Below, one piece after another: positions 27,985 through 28,166 of a stretch of DNA of 64,000 nt. The first letter of the stretch is position 1; each line of letters starts with the position of its first letter. The translations under genes and the position numbers were made by a program. The stretch comes from an uncultured Candidatus Cloacimonadota bacterium. Its GTDB lineage: Bacteria; Cloacimonadota; Cloacimonadia; JGIOTU-2. Where the stretch lies: positions 1,257 through 65,256 of the forward strand of contig CAYNOU010000004.1 of the NCBI GenBank assembly GCA_964398885.1. The letters are read 5' to 3'. The notes below the pieces were generated by a model. The model did not search any database, had not been told where the DNA came from, and saw nothing but the letters and a program-made list of their open reading frames with translations.

Positions 27985-28166
27985 TAATTAGTGTCTGTCC
28001 GTAAAGTAGGTTTTTTCGACTCGTAAGGAACGACGAGTCGAGGTAAAGGATATTAAAGCTGTCTTCCCGACTTGTCGGGATCGTCGCAAGCTCCTTATTC
28101 ATCCTTCGCAGTATGCTACGGAGAATGGACGACTCGAAAGTCGAGTTTACGGACAGACACTAATTA
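27985..28166. repeat. 182-bp structured element with perfect 21-bp terminal inverted repeats (TAATTAGTGTCTGTCCGTAAA / TTTACGGACAGACACTAATTA)
   Basis: Perfect TIR at 27985-28005 and 28146-28166. Internal hairpins TCGACTCG..CGAGTCGA, TCCCGACTTGTCGGGA and GACTCGAAAGTCGAG. GC-rich relative to its flanks. Intergenic between the LTD paralogs. Confidence 0.6.

Follow-up and report, generated by a model that had tools for sequence, protein, structure and literature searches.

Here we ask what kind of element occupies positions 27985-28166 of the 64,000-nt stretch of Cloacimonadota DNA under analysis (the window), where 182 bp with inverted ends separate two paralogous genes. A preliminary description had left three options: a MITE, a multi-branched regulatory RNA or attenuator, or a substrate for site-specific recombination or inversion. 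The first gene encodes a 277-aa LTD-domain lipoprotein (27148-27981, + strand), assigned by its Pfam LTD match and by synteny with loci L135-L137, and the second encodes a 440-aa paralog in which a domain search found two LTD domains (28207-29529, + strand). The two proteins are 46% identical and have signal/lipobox-like N-termini, in agreement with their earlier assignment as paralogous LTD-domain lipoproteins. Upstream of both genes are TctC/B, TctA, and a phosphate-type porin. The element begins 3 nt past the stop codon of the first LTD gene and ends 40 nt ahead of the start codon of the second, whose ribosome-binding site (RBS), AAGGAG at 28196-28201, sits 30 nt beyond the element. A terminator-like hairpin follows the second gene at 29552-29587.

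The ends of the element were originally described as 21-nt inverted repeats, and TAATTAGTGTCTGTCCGTAAA at 27985-28005 is indeed the perfect reverse complement of 28146-28166. Allowing up to three mismatches, this 21-mer occurs only twice in the 64-kb window, at the two ends of the 182-bp element, with 0 matches in 100 shuffles. The perfect inversion stands, but the anatomy does not, since 6 of the 21 nt belong to the target site. On sequence comparison, each end combines the 15-bp terminal inverted repeat GTGTCTGTCCGTAAA with a 6-bp target-site duplication, TAATTA; because the duplicated target is itself a palindrome, the apparent inverted repeat grows from 15 to 21 nt. The duplications lie at 27985-27990 and 28161-28166, and both are assigned from an empty site at locus L099, from direct 6-mers at L129 and L130, and from the edge of conservation. 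The left repeat (27991-28005, + strand) is identical to the left end of an insertion sequence (IS) at L106 and is presumed to be a transposase-binding end. The right repeat (28146-28160, - strand) is placed by its inversion of the left end, by the IS ends, and by per-position conservation. Among 94 paired elements, each position between -6 and +14 is conserved at 78-97%; beyond these positions the value falls, from 88% to 39% at -7 and likewise to 39% at +15. This block of exactly 6+15 nt marks the boundaries of the duplication and the 15-bp repeat. The interior (28006-28145) is non-coding, GC-rich, and hairpin-rich, and alignment and blast against all loci place it in a subfamily with copies of ~143 bp. 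The coding capacity of the element amounts to spurious overlapping ORFs of 31-45 aa. At 48.6%, the GC content of the interior exceeds that of the window (33.2%) and of the remaining spacer (25.6%), which bears out the contrast first noted between the interior and its AT-rich flanks.

Outside the window, the exact 21-mer was found in 40 stretches of reference genomes (one genome per species) and in 76 further stretches of metagenomes. The reference matches are mostly Cloacimonadota MAGs, including 13 in NIOZ-UU1 and 9 in RS_16_45. Other hosts are Bacteroidota (among them the isolate Anaerophaga thermohalophila), Caldithrix, Armatimonadota, Neomarinimicrobiota, and one Altarchaeum MAG. Nearly all loci have an inverted partner 67-373 bp away, giving at least 94 non-redundant paired short elements among 108 non-redundant loci. 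The wider search for the terminal repeat that had been proposed for this element thus returned paired copies at many unrelated sites. A scan of viral contigs with the 21-mer gave 0 matches, and a blastn search with the whole element returned nothing from annotated plasmids and phages. Exact ends in MAGs of several phyla and one archaeon point to horizontal spread or, alternatively, to contamination during binning. The archaeal case, L020 1367-1476 (Candidatus Altarchaeum sp. GA_1_1, contig coverage ~1469), is a 110-bp element with one exact end, and over its first 37 nt it is a 92% match to the left end of the L106 IS. At four loci (L021, L026, L034, and L035) the 21-mer termini are unpaired. 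We considered these as possible IS ends and rejected that assignment, as ordinary genes adjoin them and a transposase is absent; none of the MITE-bearing contigs checked runs on into IS-like subterminal sequence.

The exact upstream LTD protein is present on several metagenome contigs, and on two of these the identical element is found as well. Three independent Logan assemblies end at window position 28014, so that their last 31-mer starts one base before the element. Logan assemblies use k=31, and a break of the k=31 graph at 28014 fits a sequence that, from 27985 on, is shared with further copies. From these breaks at the element edge we infer multiple copies in the window's own genome.

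The L106 locus supplies the full-length relative. The 1,702-bp element at L106 199-1900 matches the 21-mer ends at 21/21 and 18/21 positions and encloses a single ORF for a 452-aa DDE protein. This protein scores 344.8 bits on the NCBIfam model NF033593 'ISNCY family transposase' (curated cutoff 325); its matches to IS5 and IS1182 are weaker, and those to Pfam DDE_Tnp_1 are weak. At E<=1e-20 the protein has 1,266 homologs, the majority of them on contigs of ~1.7-2 kb, which fits a repeated IS, and NCBI labels homologs in Latescibacterota and 'Saccharibacteria' MAGs as 'ISNCY family transposase'. An IS whose transposase is 74% identical occupies two different sites (L122 and L124) with the ends TAATTA-GTGTCTGTCCGAGCA ... 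TTTTCGGACAGACAC-TAATTA, and one with a 57%-identical transposase (L129-L133) has the ends GTGTCCATCCGTAGC ... GGATGGACAC. By its size (~1.7 kb) and 6-bp duplication, the parent may belong to the ISfinder ISDol1 subgroup, of ~1.6-1.9 kb with a 6-7-bp duplication.

Like the L106 IS, the window element has inverted repeats and a 6-bp duplication. Unlike it, the window element encodes nothing and shares only the terminal 18-21 nt. Because it encodes no transposase, it is better viewed as a dependent of the ISNCY family than as a member IS. By tblastn, the family transposase was found neither in the 64-kb window nor in any MITE-bearing locus other than L106. The window does contain a 156-aa C-terminal fragment of an IS1182-family transposase (30700-31170, - strand; NF033551 positions 378-487 of 488). 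This fragment was tried as a parent and rejected, having no similarity to the L106 transposase.

The target site was resolved by comparing filled and empty sites. At L099, a 175-bp element has flanks that are found again ~500 bp away, 93-98% identical and separated by one TAATTA; the filled site reads TAATTA-element-TAATTA. At L120, three abutting elements have single TAATTA junctions in common, which fits new copies entering the duplicated target of an older copy; the three-MITE block is itself duplicated ~1.6 kb away (1264-1804 and 2908-3448). The same TAATTA flanks MITEs and IS copies, so the target duplication of the MITEs matches the parent type. Since this target is palindromic, TAATTA sites alone would also fit a symmetric 0-, 2-, or 4-bp stagger, and the 6-bp length is read from two non-palindromic cases among distant full-length relatives, TAAATA/TAAATA at L129 and TAAGTA/TAAGTA at L130. 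Because these repeats are direct and non-palindromic, the 6 nt are a target-site duplication lying outside the inverted repeat. A further relative, L132, shows the inverted pair TACTTA/TAAGTA and is probably a chimeric assembly, because its right flank is common to L130 and L133. The invariant outer TA had suggested a TA-only duplication of the IS630/Tc1-like kind. This was rejected, as the L099 empty site keeps the whole TAATTA.

The LTD locus can be compared with three syntenic relatives that lack the element: L135 (GCA_029934195.1), L136 (GCA_034661015.1, Cloacimonadota), and L137. All three have the order TctC/B-TctA-porin-short LTD-next gene, with spacers of 101, 47, and 54 nt, respectively, compared with 225 nt in the window. 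Removing the element and one TAATTA in silico reduces the window spacer from 225 to 49 nt and gives CCATAAAAGTAATTAACTAAAAATT as the reconstructed empty junction. The RBS-proximal end of the spacer, ATTAACCGAAAGGAGAAAAG-ATG, also matches ATTAACCGAAAAGGAGAAAAAA-ATG of L136. Because the syntenic spacers are short, lack the element, and resemble the emptied window spacer, the element is a lineage-specific insertion. This presence/absence comparison had been proposed from the start, and it came out with the element missing from every one of the three relatives.

Shared ends, a target duplication, an empty site, spread across many loci and genomes, absence from orthologous operons, and lack of coding capacity are all directly visible in these comparisons. 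With termini common to many short elements and to an ISNCY IS, they strongly favor the first of the three original options, and we assign the 182-bp element as a MITE, a non-autonomous relative of ISNCY-family IS, with a probability of about 0.92. An ISNCY-family DDE transposase, encoded by a full-length IS at another site in the genome or in another member of the community, would act in trans, bind both 15-bp ends, and move the element. Integration into the palindromic TAATTA with a 6-bp staggered cut would duplicate the target on both sides. In this lineage the element landed between the LTD genes, extending an intercistronic spacer of ~49 nt to 225 nt, and the window copy is a ~143-bp backbone plus small palindromic modules that are also found as independent dispersed repeats in these genomes. 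The inserted element is probably transcribed with the LTD operon and would form a stable foldback there. Both the mobilization in trans and the co-transcription within the LTD operon are what we infer.

Compared by description, the element resembles the Correia/CREE elements of Neisseria, RUP of Streptococcus pneumoniae, and the IS630-related Nezha of cyanobacteria, which likewise have only terminal repeats in common with a parent IS. Further similarities are a length of about 100-400 bp, a non-coding sequence, a target duplication of fixed length, many intergenic copies, a long foldback, and presence/absence differences between relatives. The Correia, RUP, and Nezha-type families duplicate TA or other short sites. 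The element described here differs from them in its own ends (GTGTCTGTCCGTAAA), its palindromic 6-bp target TAATTA, its ISNCY parent, the occurrence of exact ends in several phyla, and a mosaic interior with smaller palindromic modules. A full-text literature search returned no description of these ends, of TAATTA-targeting MITEs, or of MITEs in Cloacimonadota, and the MITE family, defined by its 15-bp ends and by strict targeting of the palindrome TAATTA, is apparently undescribed. It occurs widely among uncultivated lineages of sediments and of anaerobes, above all in Cloacimonadota. On this assignment, the striking structure of the LTD spacer is a transposon footprint and no dedicated regulator of the LTD genes. 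For annotation, such elements are of interest in that they break assemblies, as in the three Logan contigs, and can be mistaken for structured RNAs. The element is an ordinary genomic parasite and probably has little effect on its host.

Within the family, interiors are largely unrelated from subfamily to subfamily. The nearest relatives of the window copy by blast and alignment are elements of ~143 bp at L076, L100, L037, and L008; L076 and L100 come from the sister sample Ga0315547 and are ~95% identical to the window copy across its left half. The window copy departs from this backbone by two changes. One is a 32-nt nested hairpin insertion, ATTCATCCTTCGCAGTATGCTACGGAGAATGG, at 28097-28128 (boundaries +/-1 nt), which the aligned 143-bp copies lack. 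The other, by the subfamily alignment, is the hairpin module TCCCGACTTGTCGGGA at 28065-28080, where the backbone has CCTCGAGTCG. The L099 copy carries another 32-nt insertion elsewhere in the same backbone. The occurrence of the ~143-bp backbone at several loci and in several samples (L076, L100, L037, L008, and L099) indicates that the short form itself has multiplied.

Three interior hairpins had been described, of which two are exact and the third was mis-stated. The TCGACTCG/CGAGTCGA hairpin is exact at 28016-28041, where the subfamily copies keep a backbone hairpin TCGACTCGT-N8-ACGAGTCGA, and TCCCGA/TCGGGA is exact at 28065-28080. The arms given as GACTCG/GTCGAG are non-complementary, and the true hairpin is CGACT-CGAA-AGTCG at 28130-28143.

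The palindromic modules are also found outside the elements. The 16-mer of the 28065-28080 module recurs at L030 6101, outside any element. A related 16-nt perfect palindrome, TCCCGATATATCGGGA, is exact in the window at 32194-32209, 35541-35556, and 37549-37564, and with 1 mismatch at 31319-31334, making four occurrences in ~6 kb; one of these lies inside the C-terminal part of the ORF at 32407-35676. The same palindrome lies within the MITE interiors of L022 and L024, with variants at 14 extra-element sites at other loci. A 32-45-nt hairpin module (CCATTCTCCGTAG...CTGCGAAGGATGAA) is a clean insertion in some MITE copies, is also present in other subfamilies (L024 and L032), and stands alone in intergenic DNA at L030 4685-4728 and L025 2870-2915. 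The CCCCAATnnnATTGGGG palindrome is likewise present outside elements. Overall, the modules are enriched in the elements, which contain 18-58% of the matches in 1.9% of the bases. From this distribution, the 16-45-nt palindromic modules look like a separate class of small dispersed (REP-like) repeats. The likeness to REP/BIME/REPIN sequences extends to the modules of the window element (TCCCGAnnnnTCGGGA, CCCCAATnnnATTGGGG, and the 32-nt hairpin), which are dispersed and also occur outside elements. The 182-bp unit differs in having IS-type ends and a target duplication, which REPs lack.

Folding was calculated for both strands, as had been suggested for this element, and the 182 nt are far more stable than shuffled controls: -77.3 kcal/mol (z -7.9) on the + strand and -76.5 kcal/mol (z -8.3) on the - strand. 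Because a DNA palindrome folds equally on both strands, a strong fold alone does not point to an RNA. In a 301-nt context the element pairs with itself, contributing -77 kcal/mol of a total of -90 kcal/mol, and in the minimum free energy fold the RBS is essentially unpaired, with only 28196-28197 in a marginal 2-bp helix. No terminator-like site was found in 27985-28206, where the stem is followed by ACUAAAAAUUAAA with no U-tract, and a scan of the element and adjoining DNA for sigma-70-like promoters found none, though promoter rules of this phylum may differ. Read-through across the element is plausible, because the sole terminator-like hairpin found in the scan follows the second LTD gene.

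The explanation that competes best with a simple insertion accepts a MITE origin and adds a function, with the transcript acting in the LTD operon as an RNase III target or a 3'-end stabilizer that uncouples the paralogs. Correia and ERIC/REP-type elements are reported to act in this way in mRNA, and Correia foldbacks are RNase III substrates. Here, the ~21-bp perfect stem in a read-through transcript could be an RNase III substrate as well. Genes lie on the same strand on both sides, terminator and promoter consensus sequences are absent from the element, co-transcription is plausible, and the self-contained fold leaves the RBS essentially unpaired. In addition, the two arms and the two TAATTA copies have stayed perfect even though nested insertions followed. 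On the other hand, perfect arms may just mean a young insertion, three orthologous operons work without the element, and copies at unrelated loci have decayed arms. In the terminal stem of 78 short elements we counted 190 one-sided changes versus 14 compensatory ones; with shuffled partners the compensatory count is 11.6 +/- 3.1, so there is no excess, in a set of loci that is biased by retrieval through one exact arm. We consider such a role in the operon unlikely. There is also only a slender chance that the foldback has been co-opted for intercistronic RNA processing or stability, or that the nested 16-45-nt modules are undescribed ultra-small mobile hairpins favoring foldback DNA.

Descent from an IS could also be more direct than the MITE assignment supposes, with the element left by in-situ deletion of a full-length IS at the LTD site and no short unit ever transposed. 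In favor of this, its ends are identical to full-length IS ends. The interior has nothing in common with the IS, and the ~143-bp backbone at other loci and in other samples indicates multiplication of the short form itself, which together make a deletion remnant very improbable.

The second original option, a conserved cis-regulatory structured RNA (an attenuator or riboswitch-like element) dedicated to the LTD paralogs, draws on the very stable + strand fold and on the intergenic position just upstream of a gene. The - strand fold is equally strong, the stem lacks a U-tract terminator, and stem changes are uncompensated. The Rfam scan that had been proposed returned no match at gathering thresholds, and a permissive scan of Rfam 15 (E<=10) returned chance-level matches only (E 3.7-5.7, 14-20 bits). 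Interiors are unrelated among copies, and the same termini flank a transposase gene. Absence from the syntenic orthologs, combined with presence at unrelated loci, effectively refutes a dedicated RNA. The third option would make the element a target of site-specific inversion or recombination by which the duplicated LTD genes are switched or shuffled. It has in its favor the perfect inverted repeats between two paralogs, but its probability is negligible. The DNA enclosed by the repeats is non-coding, measures no more than 140 nt, and lacks a promoter-like site. The neighbors are TctABC, the porin, the LTD genes, and the unrelated IS1182 fragment, with no adjoining invertase or recombinase and no matching transposase nearby. 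Retrieved contigs of the LTD locus are all in one orientation with identical sequence, and subfamily relatives are found in both orientations relative to their flanks, as transposition would give.

Several other features of the window were recorded. A tmRNA gene is located at 1657-2032 (163.5 bits). The ORF at 30015-30650, which has no Pfam match, contains a perfect 36-nt palindrome at 30503-30538 (18+18 nt, no spacer). Two nearly identical tRNA genes are found at 18263-18335 and 32295-32366, the latter just beyond the IS1182 fragment and adjoining a TCCCGATATATCGGGA palindrome.
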